From: Candidatus Berkelbacteria bacterium CG10_big_fil_rev_8_21_14_0_10_43_13
GTDB taxonomy: Bacteria > Patescibacteriota > UBA1384 > XYA2-FULL-43-10 > 1-14-0-10-43-13
DNA: 64,000 nucleotides
Assembly (NCBI GenBank): GCA_002773985.1
Contig: PEZW01000009.1
Coordinates: 23,546 to 87,545, forward strand
Direction: 5' to 3'
Part shown: positions 448-17,567 of the stretch, one piece after another
How positions within the stretch are numbered: position 1 is the first letter of the stretch
How the letters are laid out: each line of letters starts with the position of its first letter
Made by a program: the position numbers and the translations under genes
Notes under the pieces: generated by a model
What the model saw: the letters and a program-made list of their open reading frames with translations, nothing else
Databases searched by the model: none
Told to the model about the DNA's origin: nothing

Positions 448-2910
448 CTAATTTGTCACAACTGCCTGATAAACTTCATCGATTGTCGTTTCCCCGGCCA
501 CAGCCTTCAAAATCCCATCTTGCTTCATCGTAATCATACCGGCCTTGATGGAAGCATTTTTAATCTCATCTGCCGGTCGCTTGGTCGTCGCCATCTCCTC
601 AATCTCCGGCGTCATCGTCATCGCTTCATAGATACCGACACGACCCTTGAACCCGTGATTGCACTCAGAGCAACCCTTGCCATGAAAAAGCTTGATCTCG
701 GCCGGAATTCTTGCCCGATCTTTCGTATTGGCTTCCGGAATTTTGTCCAGCTCAGCCTTGATCTGGTCGAAAAGCCGCTGTGGTGCCTTGTATTCCTCTT
801 TGCATTTGGGACAAATCCGTCTAATCAGCCTCTGGGCAATGATCAGATTGATCGAGGACGTGATCAGAAATGGCTCGACGCCCATATTTGTCAATCTCGG
901 CAGAGCGCCGGCTGTATCATTGGTATGTAGTGTAGAAAGCACCAAGTGACCTGTCAGAGCTGAGTGAACTGCCATAGTCGCTGTTTCCGCATCACGAATC
1001 TCACCGACCATGATCACGTTTGGATCCTGACGCAAGATACTGCGAAGCCCTGAAGCAAATGTAAATCCTATCTCCGGCTTGATCTGGCACTGATTGATCC
1101 CGGCAATTTCATATTCAACCGGATCCTCGAGTGTGACTATATTGACACCCGGCATACTGATACGGTTTAGGATGGCATATAGAGTTGTGGATTTGCCTGA
1201 ACCGGTCGGCCCAGTCGATAAAATAATTCCATATGGTTTGGCGATTGCGGCGATGGTTTTGTCAAAGGCACTGCCCTGCATACCCAAGTCCTCCAGAGAC
1301 AGGATGCCCTGACTTTTGTCGAGAATTCTCATCACGATTTTTTCACCATGAACAGTCGGCAGTGTCGAAACACGTACATCAACTTCGCGCTCATCAAAAA
1401 CAGTGTCGAAGCGACCATCCTGCGGAACTCGCATTTCATCAATCTTCAGCTTTGACATAATCTTGATCCTGCTGACAAAAGCAGCATGGTCACTTACCGG
1501 CAACTTCAAGATATCACGCAAAATACCGTCGACGCGACACCTGATGCGCAGATATTTTGCCTCAGGTTCTACATGGATGTCACTTGAGCGATTGTTTAGA
1601 GCGTAATCAATGATTGCGGCAACCACCTTTGGCACCGAAGCACCCTTGGCAAAATCAACCAAGTCTTGGTCGGTCTTTATCTCATGATCGAGCCAATCAC
1701 CAAGATTTTTGTTGTCGAGTAAGGCAACTGATTCACCACCCTCTTTGTCACTAGATGCTTCTTCTTTTGCTGACTCTTGGTCCGTATTGCTTTCGCTAGC
1801 ACCATGATCAGAGGTGTCATCTGAGTCTTTTTCTGATGCCTCTTTAGTCTCAGCAGATTGAGGTTTGTTCTGGTCAGAGGGCTGATCTTTTGTAGCATTT
1901 TTCACTGTTTCTGCTGGGTCGGCAGTTTTTGCTGCAGTAGAGTCAGCTTCAACACTATCGATGGTTAGCTCTGGACCAGCTGAACTCCTAAAATTATCCA
2001 TAAAACTTTTGATACCCGACTTCTGTCCCGATTCCTTCGTAGAGCCTGAGTCATCTGAGGATTCATGATTATCTTCAGTTTTAGTGACGGGAGCATCTGT
2101 TTTCTTCGCTTTTGGCGCTTCTGATATGTAAGTTTTTGTCTTGTCGAGAATAAAATCAATGTCTGCTTTTGAAGTCGCAAATATTTCATATTTAATCTGA
2201 TTTTCCTGCTTGATAAAATTCAAAATTTTTATTGTGACCGGTGAATCAGGTTGCTCACAAGCGATAAGGTAATATCCATGATTGTTCCGTCCAAAGACGA
2301 CAATGCGATATTTTATCATAAATTCACGTGGAATTTTCTCAATAAATTCCGAGGCAATTGTCTGGTTTCTCAGGTAGATGACAGGAAAACGTCCTTTTTT
2401 CAGCAAAGAATCGTTCTTGTATTTTTTGTTGTATTGTTTGATGCATTCATCAAAGTCAGACTCGCTGGTGATGAAAAGCTCAACTTCCAGTTCTTTTTCT
2501 TCAAGTATTTTGCTGAGACCAGACCTAAAGCCAACCAGAAGATCGGCAGGTCGTGAAAGTGCTATCCTGATCGCACCATCCTCCAGAGAAAACGGTATTA
2601 TTCCGTATTTTTGTGCTACTTTTTCTGGTATTAGAGCTTTGAGCTCGTCAGAAATTTTAATATTACTAAGCTCTACATAGGGCAACTTCAAAACAATACT
2701 ATAAGCCTTGTTGATCGTATTTCTGGTGACAATTTTGTTCTTAACTAAAAAATTTTCGATCTCTCGGTTTGTTTTAAATTGTCGCTTGAGTTTTTCAGCA
2801 TCTTCTTGGTCGATCAAATCCTGAATCACAAAAACGTCCAGAATTGATTGACTGGTAAGCGCCATATTCGAAAAACCGTAATACTCAGTTATTGTGTTTG
2901 CATCTGCCAT
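448..2910 (-). CDS. pilB: Type IV pilus assembly ATPase PilB/GspE with a long internal acidic low-complexity linker
   Basis: GspE N-terminal domain, Walker A GPTGSGKST, and a CPKC..CSEC tetracysteine motif typical of GspE/PilB. About 230 aa of S/D/E/K-rich low-complexity insert lies between the N-domain and the ATPase. Confidence 0.9.
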   Translation of the reverse strand: MADANTITEYYGFSNMALTSQSILDVFVIQDLIDQEDAEKLKRQFKTNREIENFLVKNKIVTRNTINKAYSIVLKLPYVELSNIKISDELKALIPEKVAQKYGIIPFSLEDGAIRIALSRPADLLVGFRSGLSKILEEKELEVELFITSESDFDECIKQYNKKYKNDSLLKKGRFPVIYLRNQTIASEFIEKIPREFMIKYRIVVFGRNNHGYYLIACEQPDSPVTIKILNFIKQENQIKYEIFATSKADIDFILDKTKTYISEAPKAKKTDAPVTKTEDNHESSDDSGSTKESGQKSGIKSFMDNFRSSAGPELTIDSVEADSTAAKTADPAETVKNATKDQPSDQNKPQSAETKEASEKDSDDTSDHGASESNTDQESAKEEASSDKEGGESVALLDNKNLGDWLDHEIKTDQDLVDFAKGASVPKVVAAIIDYALNNRSSDIHVEPEAKYLRIRCRVDGILRDILKLPVSDHAAFVSRIKIMSKLKIDEMRVPQDGRFDTVFDEREVDVRVSTLPTVHGEKIVMRILDKSQGILSLEDLGMQGSAFDKTIAAIAKPYGIILSTGPTGSGKSTTLYAILNRISMPGVNIVTLEDPVEYEIAGINQCQIKPEIGFTFASGLRSILRQDPNVIMVGEIRDAETATMAVHSALTGHLVLSTLHTNDTAGALPRLTNMGVEPFLITSSINLIIAQRLIRRICPKCKEEYKAPQRLFDQIKAELDKIPEANTKDRARIPAEIKLFHGKGCSECNHGFKGRVGIYEAMTMTPEIEEMATTKRPADEIKNASIKAGMITMKQDGILKAVAGETTIDEVYQAVVTN

Positions 2911-2968
2911 TCTACCTTGAATATTTCCTAATTTGCTAGCAAAAACTAAAAACCTGCCAAGTCAACAA

Positions 2969-3244
2969 CTAATTGCTCGCAAAAGGATTGTCGCGACCGA
3001 CCTGGTCAGATGTTGGAGGCTGGACCGGTAAATCTCCGGCGTTTGTTTTATCAGAAATTAATGACTTGGCTGTCGAAGCCAGATTGGAAACCTCGATAGT
3101 TTGATATTTTTGGTCAGCAGATGTGTCTATTGCTACCTCAGACTGAGCTGAGCTCCAAAACCAAAAGAAACCAGCCACCGTCACAACCAGCAGTAGAGAG
3201 CTACCAATAATTCCAAGCATCCGTGATTTTGTGTTTTTACCCAT
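2969..3244 (-). CDS. Small single-pass membrane protein in the pilus operon (possible PilP-like)
   Basis: ORF with an N-terminal TM helix (LLLVVTVAGFFWFW), co-directional and tightly spaced with pilB and the PilO-like gene. Confidence 0.4.
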   Translation of the reverse strand: MGKNTKSRMLGIIGSSLLLVVTVAGFFWFWSSAQSEVAIDTSADQKYQTIEVSNLASTAKSLISDKTNAGDLPVQPPTSDQVGRDNPFASN

Positions 3245-3271
3245 TTAATTCCTTTCTCGATTTGATGAAAA

Positions 3272-3877
3272 TTATTGTGCCGTTGCAGTGGACATCACAT
3301 CAGCAGACGCACCACCACTGATCGTAGATGTGTCTCCCTGTGTGTATGTTTCCAGTTGAAGAGTCGTGGAGAAGGTGCCGTCATCAGCCGGTGCGATCGT
3401 AGCACTCTTGATAGCAAAGAACTTTAGATTGCTCTCGATCGACTTGACAAAACCGGTCAAACCGGCAAAATCTCCGCTGACAGAGAAAGATACAGAGACG
3501 GCTCCAGTACTGGTACTCTGGGACTGGTCGCTCGTGCCACTGCTATCTGATCCACCGGAAATTTGAAAACTGGGAATGTATGTTTTGTTGGCAGTCGCTA
3601 TCGCTTCCAAAGTCGTGATGATGTCACCGTTGTCCTGATCACTCGGAACCGCCACAAACATCGAATCAACCGTCGAACCAAGACTGTCAAGGGTTGACTT
3701 GGCCGTCTTGAGCGAGTCTAGCTTGGCTTTGACCGCCGTCAGCTCATGATCTACCTGAGCAACATCAGCCTTGTTTTGTTTGTATTGCGGTATGATCCAA
3801 AACCAGCTCAGTAAAAAGGCAACTATCACCAGAAAAACTGCGATAAATCCGGGAGTCGATGATTTCTTCTTTTCCAT
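3272..3877 (-). CDS. PilO-like type IV pilus assembly protein
   Basis: N-terminal TM, coiled-coil segment, S/T-rich C-terminus. Operon position after the PilN-like gene. Confidence 0.5.
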   Translation of the reverse strand: MEKKKSSTPGFIAVFLVIVAFLLSWFWIIPQYKQNKADVAQVDHELTAVKAKLDSLKTAKSTLDSLGSTVDSMFVAVPSDQDNGDIITTLEAIATANKTYIPSFQISGGSDSSGTSDQSQSTSTGAVSVSFSVSGDFAGLTGFVKSIESNLKFFAIKSATIAPADDGTFSTTLQLETYTQGDTSTISGGASADVMSTATAQ

Positions 3878-5087: not shown

Positions 5088-6254
5088 CTAATTTTTGTTC
5101 CCAACCTCTTCAGAACGCGGCATCGCCAAGTTTCGAAAACCTGGTGGCTGGCTGTTGTCAAAAGCCGGGTCATAAGAAAATAAGACTGATTGGTTCTGAT
5201 TGATCGAAAAATCTGACGCGACAAAAGAACCAGTAAACTCACCATTACCAGTGACTTCAAAATTTGATTCACAGTACATCATGACATTTATTTTATTGTT
5301 TCCTCCAAAATTACAGTTTCCCCCAGTACCGTCAGCTTTTTTCAAAACTATAATACCCAGTTTATCGCCAGACGTAGAATTTGGCAGAATATTTTTATTT
5401 TGGTTAATAGTCAGGTTGCCACCATTGACAACAATAGTGCCAATTCCATTGAAATTTGCCGAATTGTTAATGGTCAAATTACCATTGACAACCCAAACCT
5501 TACCATCAGGAAATTTCGCAAGATCACCTTTGGAGTTATTTTTGAAGAAATTAATAGGAGTATCAGCCTGAAGAGAAAAATTACTTGTAAACAGAAAATC
5601 GTTCGCCGCAATCGGCTGACCACTCCCAGCTAGAGTTTTCAGCTGGGCGATATATTGCTTGTACTGATTGCTTCCATACTTAACCTGAGCAGCAGGATTG
5701 AAGACATAGCTAGATCCAGGCGCCCAGCCAGCTCCATCAGCTGCACCAGCACCTTCAAACAAGTTGGCTGGATTCCAAAATTTTGCCAGATATTCCAAAG
5801 TAGAGCCAGCTTCACCACTATAAACATCGCCATCGACATTTAGCCCGAGAAAAATCAGGGCGGGTATTTCATAAACGACATTACCGTCCACTAGCGTCTG
5901 ACTGGTCATCAGACGGCCAGAACCACCATAATAATTTTGGCCTTCATTACCAGTGCCAAGACTAAAACAGGCTGCCATGCCAGTGGTAAATAATTGCCAA
6001 ATACAACCAATTTGCCCCAGTGCGGCTTCTGTTTTGTTGAATCCAAGATCACCGTTTGTATTGTTATTCAAAACTGCATGATTACCACCAAGTCCACCAT
6101 AAGTAATTTCACCAGAACTTGTGGTTACCTTGGTACTACCTGATATAATTTCCGGGAAATTAGACGAAGCAGCTCTGACTTTTACCACAGAAAAAACTGT
6201 TGCTACTGCAACTAAAAATACGATTAATCTCTGTGTTTTAAATCTATTTTTCAC
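5088..6254 (-). CDS. Secreted protein with Asn/Gly-rich beta-helix-like repeats (possible pilus-associated or adhesin protein)
   Basis: Signal peptide MKNRFKTQRLIVFLVAVATVFSVVKVRA. Repeats such as VVNGNLTINNSANFNGIGTIVVNGGNLTIN. Same operon as the pil genes. Confidence 0.5.
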   Translation of the reverse strand: MKNRFKTQRLIVFLVAVATVFSVVKVRAASSNFPEIISGSTKVTTSSGEITYGGLGGNHAVLNNNTNGDLGFNKTEAALGQIGCIWQLFTTGMAACFSLGTGNEGQNYYGGSGRLMTSQTLVDGNVVYEIPALIFLGLNVDGDVYSGEAGSTLEYLAKFWNPANLFEGAGAADGAGWAPGSSYVFNPAAQVKYGSNQYKQYIAQLKTLAGSGQPIAANDFLFTSNFSLQADTPINFFKNNSKGDLAKFPDGKVWVVNGNLTINNSANFNGIGTIVVNGGNLTINQNKNILPNSTSGDKLGIIVLKKADGTGGNCNFGGNNKINVMMYCESNFEVTGNGEFTGSFVASDFSINQNQSVLFSYDPAFDNSQPPGFRNLAMPRSEEVGNKN

Positions 6255-12967: not shown

Positions 12968-14155
12968 TTATTGGCAAAACGATTCGCCATCTAGAGTACT
13001 ATCACCTAAGACAGTGTTGTATTTTGAGGTGTACGAAGATTTTAGGCTGGATGAGAAATAATTATAAGGACAAACTGCAGTTGTGTTAACCCAACTAGAA
13101 TTTAAAGCTGGATCAGAAGCATAGCGGTTTGGCGTGCTGGAATTGTAAACTCCAAAATCCCAGTTTCCAGCCAGAGCAGTCCCAGTTGTATATCCGATTA
13201 ATTCACCTGCACTAAAACTAATCTGAGAAATATTGTAGTTTGTTACGGAGCTTGCCGAAGGCGTCGGCCCAAAAGTGTCTTTGATCGATTGAACAGGATC
13301 CGTAATATGCCCCAATCTAAGAGTTACCTCACAGCTAACCTTGAAATCCATGCCATAATCAGACGGATCGCTTCCATGGGATAAGAATACTCCACCGTAA
13401 AGTTTCATCGCAACAGGGGCATAGATTGGAACATTTTGATGTTGCGTATCCACATAGCTGTGAGGCTTAAATTGCCCAGAAACATATCGAGGAGGAATTA
13501 TCACCTCATTGATCTTGCTTATATCCGTAAGATGACTAGTAAAGACTGGGCTTGTGTTGCTTTGACAATCGCTGCTGCTTGAGCTTGCGGAAGAAATGGT
13601 ATCAGTTGAGGCAGTTGAGGCTTGAGTAGAACTCTGACTAGAAGAAGATGTGGTTTTTTTGCTCTTGCTTGAAGCAGCCTGAGCAGCTGCTATTTTTTCC
13701 TCCTCGGCCTTTGCTGCGGCAGCAGCAGCAGCAGCTTCGGCTTCTTTTTGCTCATCAATCTTTTTCTGACAATCAGAATAGCGGTTTTGGGCCTGACTGT
13801 ATCTTGGAAAGTTCTTTTCTATTTTACCTAGAGAATCCAAGCATCCTTGCCAATCGCCCGCCCCGAAACTAGCTTCCCCTTCTACAATTATCTTGGCTTG
13901 ATCTTCAAATTTCAGAGCTATTTTCTTTTTTGGAATAATCTTTTTGTCATTCCATTTCCATTTCTTTAGAGCTTGATCATACCTGATGACGGCAGCACTA
14001 TAATCTCCACCCTTTACTAGCGACTCTGCTTCTTTGATCAGACTATTTGATTGATGATATGACGCGCCGACAAACGAGCAAGAAATAACGACCAAAATCG
14101 CAATTACAATTATTATTAGCACTTTTTTGAATTTGAAAAACGTAAATGACATCAA
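12968..14155 (-). CDS. Membrane-anchored protein with a TPR-like N-region, a poly-Ala/Ser linker and a C-terminal domain of unknown function
   Basis: 395-aa ORF with an N-terminal TM and low-complexity AAAAAAAA and SSSS tracts. Confidence 0.5.
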   Translation of the reverse strand: MMSFTFFKFKKVLIIIVIAILVVISCSFVGASYHQSNSLIKEAESLVKGGDYSAAVIRYDQALKKWKWNDKKIIPKKKIALKFEDQAKIIVEGEASFGAGDWQGCLDSLGKIEKNFPRYSQAQNRYSDCQKKIDEQKEAEAAAAAAAAKAEEEKIAAAQAASSKSKKTTSSSSQSSTQASTASTDTISSASSSSSDCQSNTSPVFTSHLTDISKINEVIIPPRYVSGQFKPHSYVDTQHQNVPIYAPVAMKLYGGVFLSHGSDPSDYGMDFKVSCEVTLRLGHITDPVQSIKDTFGPTPSASSVTNYNISQISFSAGELIGYTTGTALAGNWDFGVYNSSTPNRYASDPALNSSWVNTTAVCPYNYFSSSLKSSYTSKYNTVLGDSTLDGESFCQ

Positions 14156-14282
14156 ACCTTTTATTTTACCAGCTAATCACTAGCTTATATTTTACATTTA
14201 CAGACGAACATAATCAACCATAATATTCTAAAAATTAAGCAACACAAACACAAAATATCCATCTCTGAGATGAATATTTTAT

Positions 14283-14330
14283 GGCAGGGGCTAGAGGAGT
14301 CGGTTACGGTCAAAAATCTGTTGATTTTTG
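14283..14330 (-). pseudogene. Degenerate copy of the tRNA-Trp 3' end
   Basis: Minus-strand 3' end CGACTCCTCTAGCCCCTGCCA matches the tRNA-Trp 3' end. No complete cloverleaf could be built. Confidence 0.35.
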
Positions 14331-14426
14331 CCTCGACCCCGTCTCGACGCCAGTCGCGCCTCCGACTTTCGACTCCTTTTACTGTCACATATCAAAATTA
14401 TCTCAACCAATTTGGTTGAGATAATT

Positions 14427-14470
14427 TTGGCAGGGACTAGAGAAGTCGAACCTCTGGCTAGGGTTTTGCC
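14427..14470 (-). pseudogene. tRNA 3' fragment (intact T-arm AGAGG-TTCGACT-TCTCT plus acceptor 3' strand and CCA, no 5' half)
   Basis: Minus strand reads ...AGAGGTTCGACTTCTCTAGTCCCTGCCA. No complementary acceptor 5' strand upstream. Confidence 0.4.
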
Positions 14471-14492
14471 TGCCGGCCGAAGTAACTGTTTT

Positions 14493-14566
14493 TGGCAGGG
14501 GTACGAGGAGTCGGACCCCGGCTTGCGGTTTTGGAGACCGCCGTTCTACCGCTAAACTATACCCCT
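14493..14566 (-). tRNA. tRNA-Trp (anticodon CCA)
   Basis: Manual fold: acceptor AGGGGTA/TACCCCT, D-stem GTTT/GAAC, anticodon stem GCGGT/ACCGC with loop CTCCAAA, T-stem CGGGG/CCTCG, CCA encoded. Confidence 0.7.
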
Positions 14567-14756
14567 ATCAAAAACAGTTTTCTCGCGCAGGCGGGGAGAC
14601 CTCCGTTATACCGTTTTCCGCCAAAGGCGGATCAGTCTCAGACTAAAACTAAGCCCCTAAATTAGTTCATAAAGTTTATCAAGTGGAAAAGTTTTTAAAG
14701 TAATAATGAAATGATCTTTACAAACTTTATGAACTTTTTGCTTTACAAACTTATAA

Positions 14757-14924
14757 CTATTTAGTTTCCTTGTGCAAGGTGCGTGCTTTGCAGACGTTGC
14801 AATACTTCAAAAGCTCAATCCGCTTGATAACGTCTTGACCTTTCAATCTCTTGTCGGTGTGATAACCTCTGGTTTTGCATTTTTCACATTCCAGAGTAAC
14901 AAGTTTCCGTGCATCTTTGGCCAT
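14757..14924 (-). CDS. rpmG: 50S ribosomal protein L33
   Basis: 55-aa ORF MAKDARKLVTLECEKCKTRGYHTDKRLKGQDVIKRIELLKYCNVCKARTLHKETK with the L33 Cys4 zinc ribbon. Not in the supplied ORF track (<60 aa). Confidence 0.8.
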   Translation of the reverse strand: MAKDARKLVTLECEKCKTRGYHTDKRLKGQDVIKRIELLKYCNVCKARTLHKETK

Positions 14925-14948
14925 GATATTCCTTAAATTACAATTTTA

Positions 14949-15023
14949 TTAAATCTAAGTGGAGCCGATAGTCGGATTTGGACCGACGACCTTCGCTTTA
15001 CAAAAGCGCTGCTCTACCACTGA
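14949..15023 (-). tRNA. tRNA-Thr (anticodon UGU)
   Basis: Manual fold: acceptor GCCGATA/TATCGGC, D-arm GCTCAGTGGTAGAGC, anticodon loop TTTGTAA, T-arm GTCGG-TCCAAAT-CCGAC, CCA encoded. Confidence 0.65.
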
Positions 15024-15024
15024 G

Positions 15025-15615
15025 CTATATCGGCATTTTGTGCTGATTTATCCATTTATTAATAATTCTCAGTAACTCAGTGTCAGAATATCTTAATGAG
15101 ACAGTTCCGAACTCAGATCTTTTTGTGTACGACCCAGCTTTTCCAGTATGGTAAAAAGTTTTGCTGAATCGAGACAGTGGAATTTTGGTTGTTTCTGACC
15201 AGAATAATTTTAATTTATCTTCGTCTTGGTCTGGGTACATGTGGAGTAGTAATCGCAAACGATCTTCTTGTGCTCCGCAAATCTGTCGAAGAAAATGCAG
15301 AAAAAGTTTGATCATGCTAGGATCACTATTACTAAACACAACACTGTTTCCGGCTTTTGTCCCTTCACCCCAATAAAGCATAATCCCTGCAATTTTCAGA
15401 TCGTTCTCTTTTGCAGAAAGTTTCTTTTTAATTGAAAAAGTTGCTTTGCCGAATTTTGTAAGATGCAACATTCTACTTGCTGAACTGTGATTCCGAAATT
15501 GAATCCTTTGTTTCTGAAGAGAATAACGAATCTTTGAAGGACTGATCTTCTGCTGTTCGGCAATCTGTGTCACAGACAGTCCAGATTCATAAAGATCTGC
15601 AATTATATTTTCCAT
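15025..15615 (-). CDS. HTH-domain protein of unknown function inserted in the tRNA cluster
   Basis: N-terminal HTH (LYESGLSVTQIAEQQKISPSKIRYSL), then a domain with GIMLYWGEGTK. A tRNA 5' fragment lies immediately upstream and the stop abuts tRNA-Thr. Confidence 0.55.
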   Translation of the reverse strand: MENIIADLYESGLSVTQIAEQQKISPSKIRYSLQKQRIQFRNHSSASRMLHLTKFGKATFSIKKKLSAKENDLKIAGIMLYWGEGTKAGNSVVFSNSDPSMIKLFLHFLRQICGAQEDRLRLLLHMYPDQDEDKLKLFWSETTKIPLSRFSKTFYHTGKAGSYTKRSEFGTVSLRYSDTELLRIINKWINQHKMPI

Positions 15616-15659
15616 ACCTGTACTATAACAGAGCTAGTGTTTAGTAACAACAGTTGCTC

Positions 15660-15691
15660 TACCACTGAGTTAAAGTGGACAATTTGTGACT
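15660..15691 (-). pseudogene. tRNA 5' fragment (acceptor 5' strand + D-arm CTCAGTGGTAGAGCAACT, tRNA-Thr(GGU)-like) without a 3' half
   Basis: Minus strand reads GTCCACTTTAACTCAGTGGTAGAGCAACTG. No matching acceptor 3' strand downstream. Confidence 0.4.
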
Positions 15692-15696
15692 GTGCC

Positions 15697-15735
15697 AGCC
15701 GTAGCCTCCGCAAACTTGCGGAGCGAAGGCTGGTG
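15697..15735. repeat. Hairpin CCAGCCGTAGC..ctccgcaaacttgcggag..GCGAAGGCTGG abutting the tRNA-Tyr 3' end
   Basis: Shares the CGTAGC...GCGAAGG core with hairpins at 26292-26315, 27248-27271 and 20090-20140. Confidence 0.45.
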
Positions 15736-15816
15736 CCGGGTGAGAGATTTGCACTCCCGAAACCCGAAGGTGCGTGATTTACAGTCACGAGCGATTGACT
15801 ACTCCGCCAACCCGGC
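15731..15816 (-). tRNA. tRNA-Tyr (anticodon GUA) with a long variable arm
   Basis: Acceptor GCCGGGT/ACCCGGC, anticodon stem CGTGA/TCACG with loop CTGTAAA, long variable arm, atypical T-loop TGCAAAT, CCA encoded. Confidence 0.7.
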
Positions 15817-15940
15817 AAATTGTTAATTATGGATGTGCCACGTGAATCGAACGATTGATTTGTTGTCTTTGTCCGTCCCGTAAAACTCACTTCGTTCGCC
15901 ACGGGACACTCCAAAATCTCACTTTCGTTCGATTTTTACG

Positions 15941-16016
15941 TGGAGCCGTTGACCGGAGTTGAACCGGTGACCTACTCCTTACCATGGAGTTGCTCTACCA
16001 ACTGAGCTACAACGGC
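15941..16016 (-). tRNA. tRNA-Thr (anticodon GGU)
   Basis: Acceptor GCCGTTG/CAACGGC, D-arm GCTCAGTTGGTAGAGC, anticodon stem ACTCC/GGAGT with loop ATGGTAA, T-arm CCGGTTCAACTCCGG, CCA encoded. Confidence 0.8.
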
Positions 16017-16066
16017 AAAAACAACAATAGAACTATACCAGAAGTCAGCTCTCTTTTCAATTCTAA

Positions 16067-16609
16067 TTATTTTATTAAATTTTTCAAATCTTCTATTTTC
16101 TGAGATGAGTTATCAAAAATTTCAATGTTTAATTTACGAACTTCATCAATCAAAAACTCATCAATGTATCTCGCAGCAACAAATTGTTTTTCTACTGCGT
16201 CACTTCTTTTTCTGTGAACAAAGAAGCAATCGTGATGCACAAGTTCATCTTTGCAGACGACAAGGAAGCAATTTCCCAGCAAACTAAACTTAGCCGGATC
16301 CAAAAAAGCAGACTCGGCTATAAGTGACATGTTTTTGTTCTTGATAAATTTCAAGGCACGGTCAGACATTTCTTTTCTAACGGCGAGAAAGCCCTTTATC
16401 GCTGTTTCTCTGTTTAATTCTCCAAACTTTTGCCACGCCATAGTTGTGTAATAAAAAAGAAAAGGGCTGTCTTCAGCATTCTTCCCTTTTTGAGCAAGGG
16501 TTCTAATGTCGTCTAGTTCAAAAAAATCAAGATCCAAATCATCAGCAATTTTTTGGCCAATAGTAGTCTTCCCTGAACCAGGGGTGCCGTATAAAAATAT
16601 CTTTTTCAT
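16067..16609 (-). CDS. P-loop NTPase/kinase-family protein
   Basis: Walker A GTPGSGKTT at the N-terminus. About 180 aa. Confidence 0.55.
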   Translation of the reverse strand: MKKIFLYGTPGSGKTTIGQKIADDLDLDFFELDDIRTLAQKGKNAEDSPFLFYYTTMAWQKFGELNRETAIKGFLAVRKEMSDRALKFIKNKNMSLIAESAFLDPAKFSLLGNCFLVVCKDELVHHDCFFVHRKRSDAVEKQFVAARYIDEFLIDEVRKLNIEIFDNSSQKIEDLKNLIK

Positions 16610-16649
16610 AATAATTAATTTGACTTTGGTCGGGAAAAGCTAAATATCA

Positions 16650-17567
16650 TTACTCACTTTCAGTATCGCTCTTTTTACCAAGCGCTTCTCCTAGTTTTTC
16701 GATCGCCCACTCATCATAATGATCGATCATTATCTGACTTTCTTGGTACCACTCTACTTTAACTTTTTGATATTCTGCCCTAAAACGCTCAGTCTCCTCT
16801 TCGGTCCAGTCATCACCAAAAATTCTCTTCTCACCATTTTTTACTAAGCCGATTCGCGACGCCGCGATATATTTGAGCGTTCTAGGTAGTTCGGCACCAA
16901 CATCATACTGCTCGTCTGCCTGATAATCCAAAACACCGTTTACATCATCGCCTTCATATATTCCGTTTTTTTGAAGAAGTCGCATTACCGAATAATAATT
17001 AACTAACTGACAAAATTCGGTAATTTTAGTCCCCCGCTCTGAAGAAATCCCTTCTTCTAAGATATGTCCATCCTTAATAAAAGAATATGCATTTCTGGCC
17101 AGTCTCCCGTTCCCATCTGGAAACATGTGAGCAAAGACTAAAGCGACATAGAGCTTCACAGCCCAGATTTCTGTGGTTTCGGCAGAAATTTTTTGCTGCA
17201 GCTCTTTGAAAAAATGCTCGAATAGAATCTCAGCATTTTCTGGTGGTTCAAGCTCTTTCATCGACCCACCTCCAAATGCAACGGTAGTATCGGCAGCCTC
17301 ACCGCTCCACCTCGTAAAACCGGCACCACGCAAAAGCCCATTCGAGACACTCAAAATATCTAGAAATTTACCAGCTTCCATGTCTTTTAGTATTTTCAAG
17401 CGAGTTTCGCTGCCCTCAGGTATTTCTCTTGGTTTTTCATCGTCGCTATCAGCCACAACACTATCTTTATCTGCCACAACGCCATAAAGATGAGCAAAAC
17501 GATCGAATTTATTATGACCTTCTTGCCTACTTTCTGGCGAATCAGATTCAAATCTCGGCTCTCTCAT
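16650..17567 (-). CDS. Fic/Doc family protein (AMPylation-type)
   Basis: Fic motif HMFPDGNGRLAR (HxFxDGNGR). Confidence 0.85.
   Translation of the reverse strand: MREPRFESDSPESRQEGHNKFDRFAHLYGVVADKDSVVADSDDEKPREIPEGSETRLKILKDMEAGKFLDILSVSNGLLRGAGFTRWSGEAADTTVAFGGGSMKELEPPENAEILFEHFFKELQQKISAETTEIWAVKLYVALVFAHMFPDGNGRLARNAYSFIKDGHILEEGISSERGTKITEFCQLVNYYSVMRLLQKNGIYEGDDVNGVLDYQADEQYDVGAELPRTLKYIAASRIGLVKNGEKRIFGDDWTEEETERFRAEYQKVKVEWYQESQIMIDHYDEWAIEKLGEALGKKSDTESE

Follow-up and report, generated by a model that had tools for sequence, protein, structure and literature searches.

A minus-strand tRNA-rpmG cluster with an inserted open reading frame

We analyzed a 64,000-nucleotide (nt) stretch (the window) of contig PEZW01000009.1 from Candidatus Berkelbacteria bacterium CG10_big_fil_rev_8_21_14_0_10_43_13. 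A minus-strand cluster of tRNA genes and rpmG in this window contains an open reading frame (ORF) for a helix-turn-helix protein of 196 amino acids (aa), which is the main subject here. Directly upstream of the ORF lies the remnant of a tRNA-Thr gene, and at its 3′ end the ORF shares 10 nt with an intact tRNA-Thr(UGU) gene. Fragments of a second tRNA-Trp allele surround the intact tRNA-Trp gene of the cluster. tRNA genes were called with ARAGORN and with Infernal against Rfam, whereas rpmG and the domains of the ORF product were assigned with Pfam (Table 1). These tools matched the gene order proposed in a previous reading of the letters alone (the sequence-only reading): tRNA-Thr(GGU), tRNA-Tyr, a tRNA fragment with the ORF, tRNA-Thr(UGU), rpmG, and tRNA-Trp. 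Neither ARAGORN nor Infernal called any of the fragments as a tRNA, in line with that reading.

The ORF belongs to a protein family paired with particular tRNA genes

In a protein search, homologues of the ORF product formed about 100 clusters. A scan of one genome per species yielded 117 loci, of which 80 were kept, all 80 with record titles of the Patescibacteria type; tRNA linkage was counted over these 80 loci. At about 65 of them, the distance from the ORF stop codon to the start of a tRNA gene on the same strand is -38 to +65 nt. For a random gene, the chance of such tRNA adjacency is about 0.2%, a rough estimate rather than a computed value. Two apparent exceptions, the loci L047 and L054, have behind the ORF a tRNA-Tyr gene that is interrupted by group I intron-like sequence (at about 3080-3300 and 2807-3000, respectively) and was missed by ARAGORN. 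Group I intron-like sequence was also seen in L032 (2080-2260), in a tRNA-Thr-like gene upstream of the ORF that ARAGORN did not call.

A neighbor-joining tree of 76 members contained three clades that correspond exactly to the neighboring tRNA, namely tRNA-Gly(GCC), tRNA-Tyr(GUA), and tRNA-Thr(UGU). The window protein falls in the Thr clade. IMG/VR viral contigs encode seven distant relatives (24-41% identity), and four of these lie within clusters of tRNA genes. The main result of our analysis is this conserved, clade-specific pairing of an uncharacterized protein family with particular tRNA genes; no description of the family was found in the literature searched.

We also searched upstream of the ORF and downstream of the neighboring tRNA for displaced tRNA parts. 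Remnants were found at a minority of the family loci only, so that many copies of the ORF may be stably inherited. At several loci of the Gly clade, the tRNA 3′ end is repeated downstream. In L032, a split tRNA-Thr gene flanks the unit on both sides, with a 5′ remnant upstream of the ORF and a piece from the variable loop to the CCA end downstream of the intact tRNA.

Table 1. Features of the minus-strand cluster, in the order of transcription, with their positions in the window.
Feature	Position	Strand	Basis
Promoter-like site ahead of tRNA-Thr(GGU)	16032-16060		Promoter scan
tRNA-Thr(GGU), intact, first gene of the cluster	15941-16016	-	ARAGORN; Rfam, 70.5 bits
tRNA-Tyr(GUA), intact	15731-15816	-	ARAGORN; Rfam, 49.6 bits
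Hairpin GCCTTCGCT...GGCTACGGCTGG, right behind the CCA end of tRNA-Tyr	15695-15730	-	Sequence, fold
Thr remnant, positions 1-48 of a former tRNA-Thr(UGU)	15631-15680	-	Alignment; not called as a tRNA
Promoter-like site for the ORF: TTGTTA, 17 nt, TG-TATAGT	15622-15650	-	Promoter scan
196-aa ORF, N-terminal helix-turn-helix and C-terminal domain with GIMLYWGEGTK...NSDP	15025-15615	-	
tRNA-Thr(UGU), intact, 'GCCGATA/GCGCT' allele	14960-15034	-	ARAGORN; Rfam, 69.3 bits; comparison with L012
rpmG (ribosomal protein L33)	14757-14924	-	Pfam PF00471, E = 6e-13
Trp fragment A, 5′ half of tRNA-Trp allele T1	14595-14658	-	Alignment; repeat family D3
tRNA-Trp(CCA), intact, allele B	14493-14566	-	ARAGORN; Rfam, 61.6 bits
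Trp fragment C, 3′ half of a T1-like tRNA-Trp	14428-14468	-	Alignment; repeat search
Spacer between Trp fragments C and D, noncoding	14304-14427	-	Inverted repeats I1, I4, and I5
Trp fragment D, last 22 nt of T1	14282-14303	-	Alignment; repeat search

The tRNA-Thr remnant is an old part of the ORF unit and overlaps its putative promoter

The sequence-only reading had derived the fragment next to the ORF from tRNA-Thr(GGU). Alignment instead assigned it to positions 1-48 of a tRNA-Thr(UGU) allele, GCCACCT...ACTGT-TTTGTAA-ACAGT-AGGTC, which is intact and has no adjoining ORF in L012. A 24-mer spanning D arm and anticodon stem (15650-15673) differs from the L012 tRNA by one mismatch, with 0 such matches expected by chance, and the anticodon loop of the remnant has 2 extra nt compared with the L012 allele. 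The junction between remnant and ORF unit follows the variable loop (position 48/49), at the start of the -10 box of the ORF. A break in the anticodon loop, assumed at one stage, was revised, as the alignment with L012, L020, and L021 runs to position 48.

Both the 2-nt insertion and the junction are common to L001, L020, and L021, and ACAGTAGGTC is kept exactly in L021. This indicates that the remnant is an old, inherited part of the ORF unit. Its D arm is unusually complete in the window and decayed in L001; the completeness would fit a recombination junction, the left-hand one, within a resident L012-type gene. Compared with the L012 allele, the tRNA-Thr(UGU) gene now resident in the window is changed in four acceptor-stem pairs and the five anticodon-stem pairs only. 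The same new allele is present in L009-L016, where there is no ORF and where an L012-type remnant ending at position 34, with a hairpin inserted in its D loop, lies ahead of it. This remnant represents an independent replacement event, similar in style to the tRNA-Trp locus described below.

The hairpin CCNCCTTCGCT...GGCTACGGNGG recurs at or just past tRNA CCA ends: behind tRNA-Tyr in the window (15695-15730), at about 2729-2775 in L001, and in a spacer of L009 (2675-2804). One copy also sits in the D loop of the tRNA-Thr remnant of L009. The tRNA-Tyr(GUA) genes of the window and of L001 are 100% identical.

The remnant contributes to the predicted expression signals of the ORF. The -35 box of the promoter-like site lies inside the anticodon-arm hairpin of the remnant, and the ATG follows 6 nt past the -10 box. 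The succession of a hairpin, (A)GGTC, and TGnTATAAT recurs upstream of many Thr-clade homologues. Judging from its position, the hairpin at the -35 box may double as an operator, which would make the gene autoregulatory. At the other end of the ORF, in 10-nt overlaps, the stop codon TAG is provided by U8-A9-G10 (positions 8-10) of the downstream tRNA. The same overlap was seen in L001, L018, L020-L022, L025, L029, L031, L033, L039, L041, L045, L079, and L094. Since the stop codon lies within the tRNA, cleavage at the tRNA 5′ end by RNase P would strip it from a co-transcript, and this removal could limit expression of the protein.

Relatives have the ORF or lack it at the same place

Relatives for comparison were drawn from contigs coding for the same L33 protein or for a protein closely homologous to the ORF product. 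L001, L009-L016, and L012 are related at the genus level (nucleotide identity of 75-81% for the BipA and TPR genes). Among the contigs with identical L33, the ORF is present in L001 and absent between the same tRNA genes in L009-L016 and L012.

We then compared the ORF of the window with that of L001 at the level of codons. Where the encoded residues are identical, the same codon is used in 71% of cases in the ORF (121/170) and in 50% in the flanks (544/1089; Fisher p = 2e-7), in a test that covers one genome pair and takes four housekeeping genes as flanks. The fraction for rpmG is intermediate (65%). The ORF is thus less diverged at synonymous positions than its flanks, suggesting that the ORF segment was exchanged more recently.

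The order Thr-Tyr-(ORF)-Thr-rpmG-Trp, without tuf and nusG, was also found in L001, L003, and L009-L016. When approximate Escherichia coli EF-Tu and NusG sequences were used as tblastn queries, only BipA was matched in the 64 kilobases (kb). The absence of tuf and nusG pointed out in the sequence-only reading therefore stands, but not as a local event: their loss is clade-wide and not recent. The same reading had taken the cluster for a rearranged one marked by tRNA repeats, and here L001 goes partly against it, having the same order with an intact tRNA-Trp gene, no repeats, and a vestigial Thr remnant.

The surroundings of the cluster vary among relatives, and in L009 and L012 the entire tRNA-rpmG cluster is inverted with respect to the flanks. 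In the window, a Fic/DOC-domain gene and a small gene for a P-loop nucleoside triphosphatase are located between the TPR gene and the tRNA cluster (16067-17567). They are not at that position in L001, and a 395-aa gene on the other side of the cluster differs too. In the Berkelbacteria relative L003, an 86-aa ORF with a GIY-YIG domain (5344-5604) lies between tRNA-Tyr and the helix-turn-helix ORF and is a second gene of endonuclease type in that tRNA cluster.

A split older allele surrounds the tRNA-Trp gene

L001, L009-L016, and L012 each have one simple, intact tRNA-Trp gene, allele T1 (AGGGGCTTAGTTAAGCGG...CCGACTCCTCTAGCCCCTGCCA). The intact tRNA-Trp gene of the window is another allele, B, with the acceptor AGGGGTA as in the more distant L003, and it is bracketed by the 10-base-pair (bp) inverted repeat I2 (AACTGTTTTT / AAAAACAGTT). 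On its upstream side, fragment A comprises T1 positions 1-12, a 30-nt insertion in the D loop, and positions 13-34 (19/22 identical) and ends in the anticodon loop. On its downstream side, fragment C corresponds to T1 positions 33-74 (36/41 identical), starts in the anticodon loop, and is followed by a perfect 18-bp hairpin (14393-14429). A and C are exactly complementary halves of T1 that meet in the anticodon loop. Thus, the resident tRNA-Trp is nested inside a split, older T1.

Fragment D covers T1 positions 52-74, from the T loop to CCA (22/22 identical), at the original end of the gene. The terminator hairpin behind it (14249-14283) is the same as in L009. The 22-mer CCGACTCCTCTAGCCCCTGCCA is found without mismatch at 14282-14303 and with three mismatches each at 14428-14449 and 14493-14514 (repeat family D1), with 0 matches expected from shuffled sequences. 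The sequence-only reading had described C and D as two degenerate copies of the 3′ end of the resident tRNA-Trp. Both 3′ pieces are real, but they are closer to T1 than to the resident gene, and the 5′ half upstream, fragment A, had been overlooked.

The spacer between C and D includes a hairpin of the terminator type and, at 14368-14382, the T arm in inverted copy. In layout it is similar to small noncoding elements, about 130-150 nt in length, at tRNA 3′ ends in L032 (2276-2431), L094 (2962-3133), and L054 (1808-2180). These elements begin with an inverted T-arm copy, have a conserved core GGGGGTCGGGGAAAC..GTTTCCCCGTGG, and close with a tRNA 3′-end repeat of 15-19 nt; L054 has a tandem array of them. 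A comparison of the window spacer with the elements of L032, L054, and L094 demonstrated no sequence homology. Fragment D and the spacer look like what a small element would leave behind after insertion at a tRNA 3′ end, and for this part of the locus the integration idea of the sequence-only reading may well be right.

For the tRNA-Trp locus, these data suggest that a resident T1 gene would have been broken in the anticodon loop and that a piece of about 125 nt with a complete, presumably foreign tRNA-Trp now fills the break. The 22-nt repeat would go back to a small insertion that had occurred earlier at the 3′ end. The outcome fits that at the Thr locus, here without a surviving ORF, although the mechanism proposed is a putative one. 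When metagenomes were scanned for the origin of allele B, the only hits were unrelated tRNA-Trp genes of marine phages. A 28-nt core of the window tRNA-Trp is present exactly in tRNA arrays of the marine or estuarine phage-like metagenome contigs L105-L137; because the acceptor stems are unrelated, this shared core probably reflects convergence or deep conservation.

Two other explanations of the fragments were rejected. A transfer-messenger RNA or other structured RNA at 14270-14665 was considered; the hairpins and the tRNA within this region account for its stable fold (z = -7.2), and no Rfam family matched. A group I intron or a split tRNA would need a ribozyme or a partner for each remnant. 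An Rfam search over 14100-16100 at E <= 10 detected no group I intron, a 3′ exon to go with the Thr remnant is missing, and what separates Trp fragments A and C is a complete tRNA.

The protein combines a helix-turn-helix with a conserved C-terminal domain

The AlphaFold model of the ORF product reached a predicted local distance difference test (pLDDT) value of 88.5 for the whole protein and 92.8, with a predicted template modeling (TM) score of 0.87, for the C-terminal 137 residues. It consists of a helix-turn-helix followed by an alpha-beta-beta-alpha-beta-alpha-beta-alpha domain. Invariant residues of this domain are Y81, W82, E84, G85, N96, W139, and G170, and the invariant motif L-Y-W-G-E-G is predicted to close a helix formed by residues 68-84. 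Pfam detected a weak helix-turn-helix alone in the ORF product, and a PDB profile search likewise gave matches to the helix-turn-helix alone. This part resembles the helix-turn-helix regions of phage HNH endonucleases in PHROGs.

The family defined by the C-terminal domain comprises 2,887 representatives of 50%-identity clusters (E <= 1e-3). Proteins with one copy and with two copies of the domain both occur; among the latter are P0124, P0137, P0212, and P0233, with 396-576 aa. This composition suggests a domain that functions in dimeric or pseudo-dimeric form. No known catalytic domain was found in the long family members scanned.

A LAGLIDADG-like identity, raised as a question in the sequence-only reading and suggested at first by the MLYWGEG motif, was not supported by the Pfam, PDB profile, hhalign, and Foldseek searches. 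LAGLIDADG was absent from Pfam scans that covered 35 members as well as phage, distant, and long ones, and the alpha-beta-beta-alpha-beta-beta-alpha core fold of these enzymes was not recognized by structure comparison.

Interpretation of the ORF unit

We hold with moderate confidence that the ORF is a free-standing, homing-endonuclease-like selfish gene, specific for tRNA-Thr(UGU), which travels with a replacement tRNA and encodes a predicted nuclease. This reading builds on the anatomy of the locus, the linkage to tRNA genes across the family, the specificity of the clades for one tRNA, the presence or absence of the ORF at a given place, and the excess of synonymous similarity over the flanks. 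A homing gene is expected at a fixed place beside a conserved target gene, present in some genomes and absent in others, and this is what was found (about 65 of the 80 loci are tRNA linked, and the place is empty in L009-L016 and L012). Signs of horizontal spread relative to the flanks were found in the pair of the window and L001.

The mobile unit would consist of the decayed tRNA-Thr part (positions 1-48) bearing the ORF promoter, the ORF, and the complete tRNA-Thr(UGU) gene. The protein would bind tRNA-gene DNA via its helix-turn-helix, and tRNA-Thr genes without an ORF would be cut near the boundary between variable loop and T stem. Repair off an ORF-bearing genome would then copy in the ORF together with a working tRNA, with the 5′ remnant on one side and the 3′ part of the tRNA with its downstream flank on the other side as homology arms. 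We infer the nuclease activity, the cleavage site, and the resistance of the resident allele, and the same is true of the mechanism at the Trp locus.

Several observations weigh against this reading. The C-terminal domain had no Pfam, NCBIfam, or PDB sequence match in any member searched, and no catalytic domain was identified. A Foldseek search of the PDB with the model of pLDDT 92.8 returned only OmpA-like folds (TM score of about 0.4) and no LAGLIDADG enzyme among the top 50; hhalign against I-CreI gave a probability of 0.2%; and the matches to viral proteins annotated as LAGLIDADG were weak (E = 0.015-0.4). In L036 and L044, tRNAs with the presumed 'sensitive' type of anticodon stem adjoin the ORF, which weakens the idea of a resistant allele. 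Some ORFs of the Thr clade are located downstream and not upstream of their tRNA, most homologue loci have no obvious tRNA remnant, and there is no ORF at the tRNA-Trp locus. Finally, the comparators without the ORF are genus-level relatives only, at the identity given above, and at this distance loss and gain of the ORF are indistinguishable.

A more far-reaching version, which we regard as possible and put forward tentatively, is that the whole family represents a new class of site-specific DNA endonucleases with a helix-turn-helix and a novel catalytic domain, comprising about 2,900 clusters. It would act as a natural 'cleave and rescue' drive that cuts an essential single-copy tRNA gene and is propagated by its tight linkage to a functional, immune copy of that tRNA, with clades specialized on tRNA-Thr(UGU), tRNA-Tyr(GUA), tRNA-Gly(GCC), and others, in bacteria of candidate phyla and in phages.

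Alternative explanations

The sequence-only reading favored integration or excision at tRNA genes: islands or prophages would have been integrated and excised by an integrase, their interiors deleted, and the ORF would be leftover cargo or an excisionase-like gene. We consider this unlikely as an account of the whole cluster, although the footprints of rearrangement are genuine. Direct repeats of the tRNA 3′ part, as expected of an integrative element, are present (C, positions 33-74; D, positions 52-74); both run to CCA, and they start in the anticodon loop and the T loop, respectively, which are reportedly the typical crossover positions of tRNA-targeting tyrosine integrases. Repeats of tRNA 3′ ends also flank the small elements of L032, L054, and L094, and the differing flanks of the cluster among relatives would be in line with integration. 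However, no integrase or recombinase domain was found by Pfam in the ORF or in the nine neighboring ORFs scanned (about 9.4-30.9 kb), and only 24-125 nt, without cargo, lie between the repeats. Integration at a 3′ end cannot yield 5′ halves upstream of complete tRNAs that have their own, different 5′ halves, and a clade-specific tRNA linkage over about 100 species is unlike random cargo. The ORF is instead the conserved core of a tRNA-linked gene family.

The ORF could also be an ordinary host gene, encoding a DNA-binding regulator or a tRNA-related factor and co-transcribed with the tRNA, while the fragments would be decayed tandem tRNA duplicates unrelated to it. That the helix-turn-helix is the sole recognizable part of the protein and that the palindromic hairpin at the -35 box is operator-like would suit a regulator, and the protein is under purifying selection, is kept in many lineages, and is without tRNA remnants at most loci. 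Nevertheless, this explanation is improbable in view of the sporadic distribution (117 of the species genomes scanned), the presence or absence of the ORF among genus-level relatives, and the relatives inside phage tRNA clusters. Nor would it account for a synonymous similarity above that of the flanks, for protein clades that follow tRNA identity, or for a remnant whose junction immediately adjoins the ORF promoter.

A third possibility, which we rate as quite doubtful, is that the ORF encodes a small site-specific recombinase of a new kind and that the unit is an integrative element with a single gene, whose attachment site comprises tRNA positions 1-48; the 5′ part of the host gene would be displaced and the tRNA rebuilt. 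Such an element would mirror the layout known from 3′-end integration, as the displaced 5′ fragment, the element, and the rebuilt tRNA do here; Tyr81 and Glu84 are invariant, and the helix-turn-helix weakly matches resolvase and transposase types. Searches by sequence and by fold gave no match to a catalytic domain of a resolvase, integrase, or transposase, however: the resolvase-type HTH_7 hit remained below the cut-off (17 bits), PF00239 was not matched, and no resolvase appeared in the fold search. Moreover, the two repeat copies are strongly diverged, and the flanking repeat is missing from most family loci.

Although assemblers can be misled by tRNA repeats, an artefact or chimera of assembly is highly improbable and in effect excluded, because three independent assemblies of the same strain from different samples (L008, L011, and L017) have the arrangement base for base; the samples of L008 and L011 are ERZ27293400 and JGI 3300004210.

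Significance and comparison with known systems

If the protein is a nuclease, it belongs to an abundant, undescribed family of sequence-specific enzymes that target tRNA genes, which would be interesting as a possible source of new DNA-targeting scaffolds. Selfish elements would then invade essential, intron-less RNA genes of tiny genomes by bringing the replacement with them, and this would explain the mosaic tRNA alleles and the tRNA pseudogene fragments in Patescibacteria. If the protein is only a regulator, a conserved pairing of gene and tRNA remains, along with ordinary pseudogene debris. For annotation, tRNA halves beside such ORFs should not be taken as split or intron-containing tRNAs, and a 'helix-turn-helix hypothetical protein' adjoining a tRNA can be recognized as a unit.

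In synthetic 'cleave and rescue' drives, which are engineered with Cas9 in eukaryotes, a nuclease directed against an essential gene is linked to a copy of this gene that the nuclease does not cut. An ORF product that cleaves tRNA-Thr genes, with an immune tRNA copy of its own, would follow the same logic; within this parallel, the L036 and L044 loci argue against a simple resistant allele.

With integrative elements that target tRNA genes, the window shares the direct repeats of the tRNA 3′ part (C and D) and an incoming DNA that carries the displaced part of a tRNA. Unlike such elements, it has no integrase found nearby and hardly any cargo; displacement also affects 5′ parts, and each replacement tRNA is a complete gene that has a 5′ half of its own.

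A parallel in gene control may be seen in I-TevI, an intron-encoded GIY-YIG endonuclease that binds an operator over its own promoter, and this operator resembles its homing site. By analogy, the palindrome resembling an anticodon arm that overlaps the -35 box of the ORF might serve a similar autorepression.

Group I introns in tRNA genes of Patescibacteria and Cyanobacteria encode endonucleases of the LAGLIDADG, PD-(D/E)XK, and HNH families, and the same family tends to be associated with the same tRNA; the ORF family is not described there (PMC13011429). As with these intron-encoded enzymes, tRNA genes are the apparent targets of the ORF family, and group I introns adjoin family members in L032, L047, and L054. 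Unlike them, the window protein matches none of the three families. In contrast to intron homing, there is no ribozyme at the window locus, and the interrupted tRNA copy is dead and is replaced by an uninterrupted one.

Homing endonucleases are also present in the tRNA region of T5-like phages. The nearest described analogue of the ORF unit appears to be SegB of phage T4, a GIY-YIG homing endonuclease encoded in a tRNA cluster, which has a 27-bp site that includes the T-psi-C stem-loop of tRNA genes and drives the inheritance of its own gene and of neighboring tRNA genes (PMC2330249). The ORF family differs from SegB in having no recognizable nuclease domain, in being mostly chromosomal in Patescibacteria, and in comprising clades that are each tied to one tRNA species. 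Its ORF abuts or overlaps the tRNA 5′ end, and a tRNA remnant forms the ORF promoter. What the two would have in common is their position relative to tRNA genes: the junctions deduced for the ORF family lie by the T stem, and its phage relatives are found in tRNA clusters.

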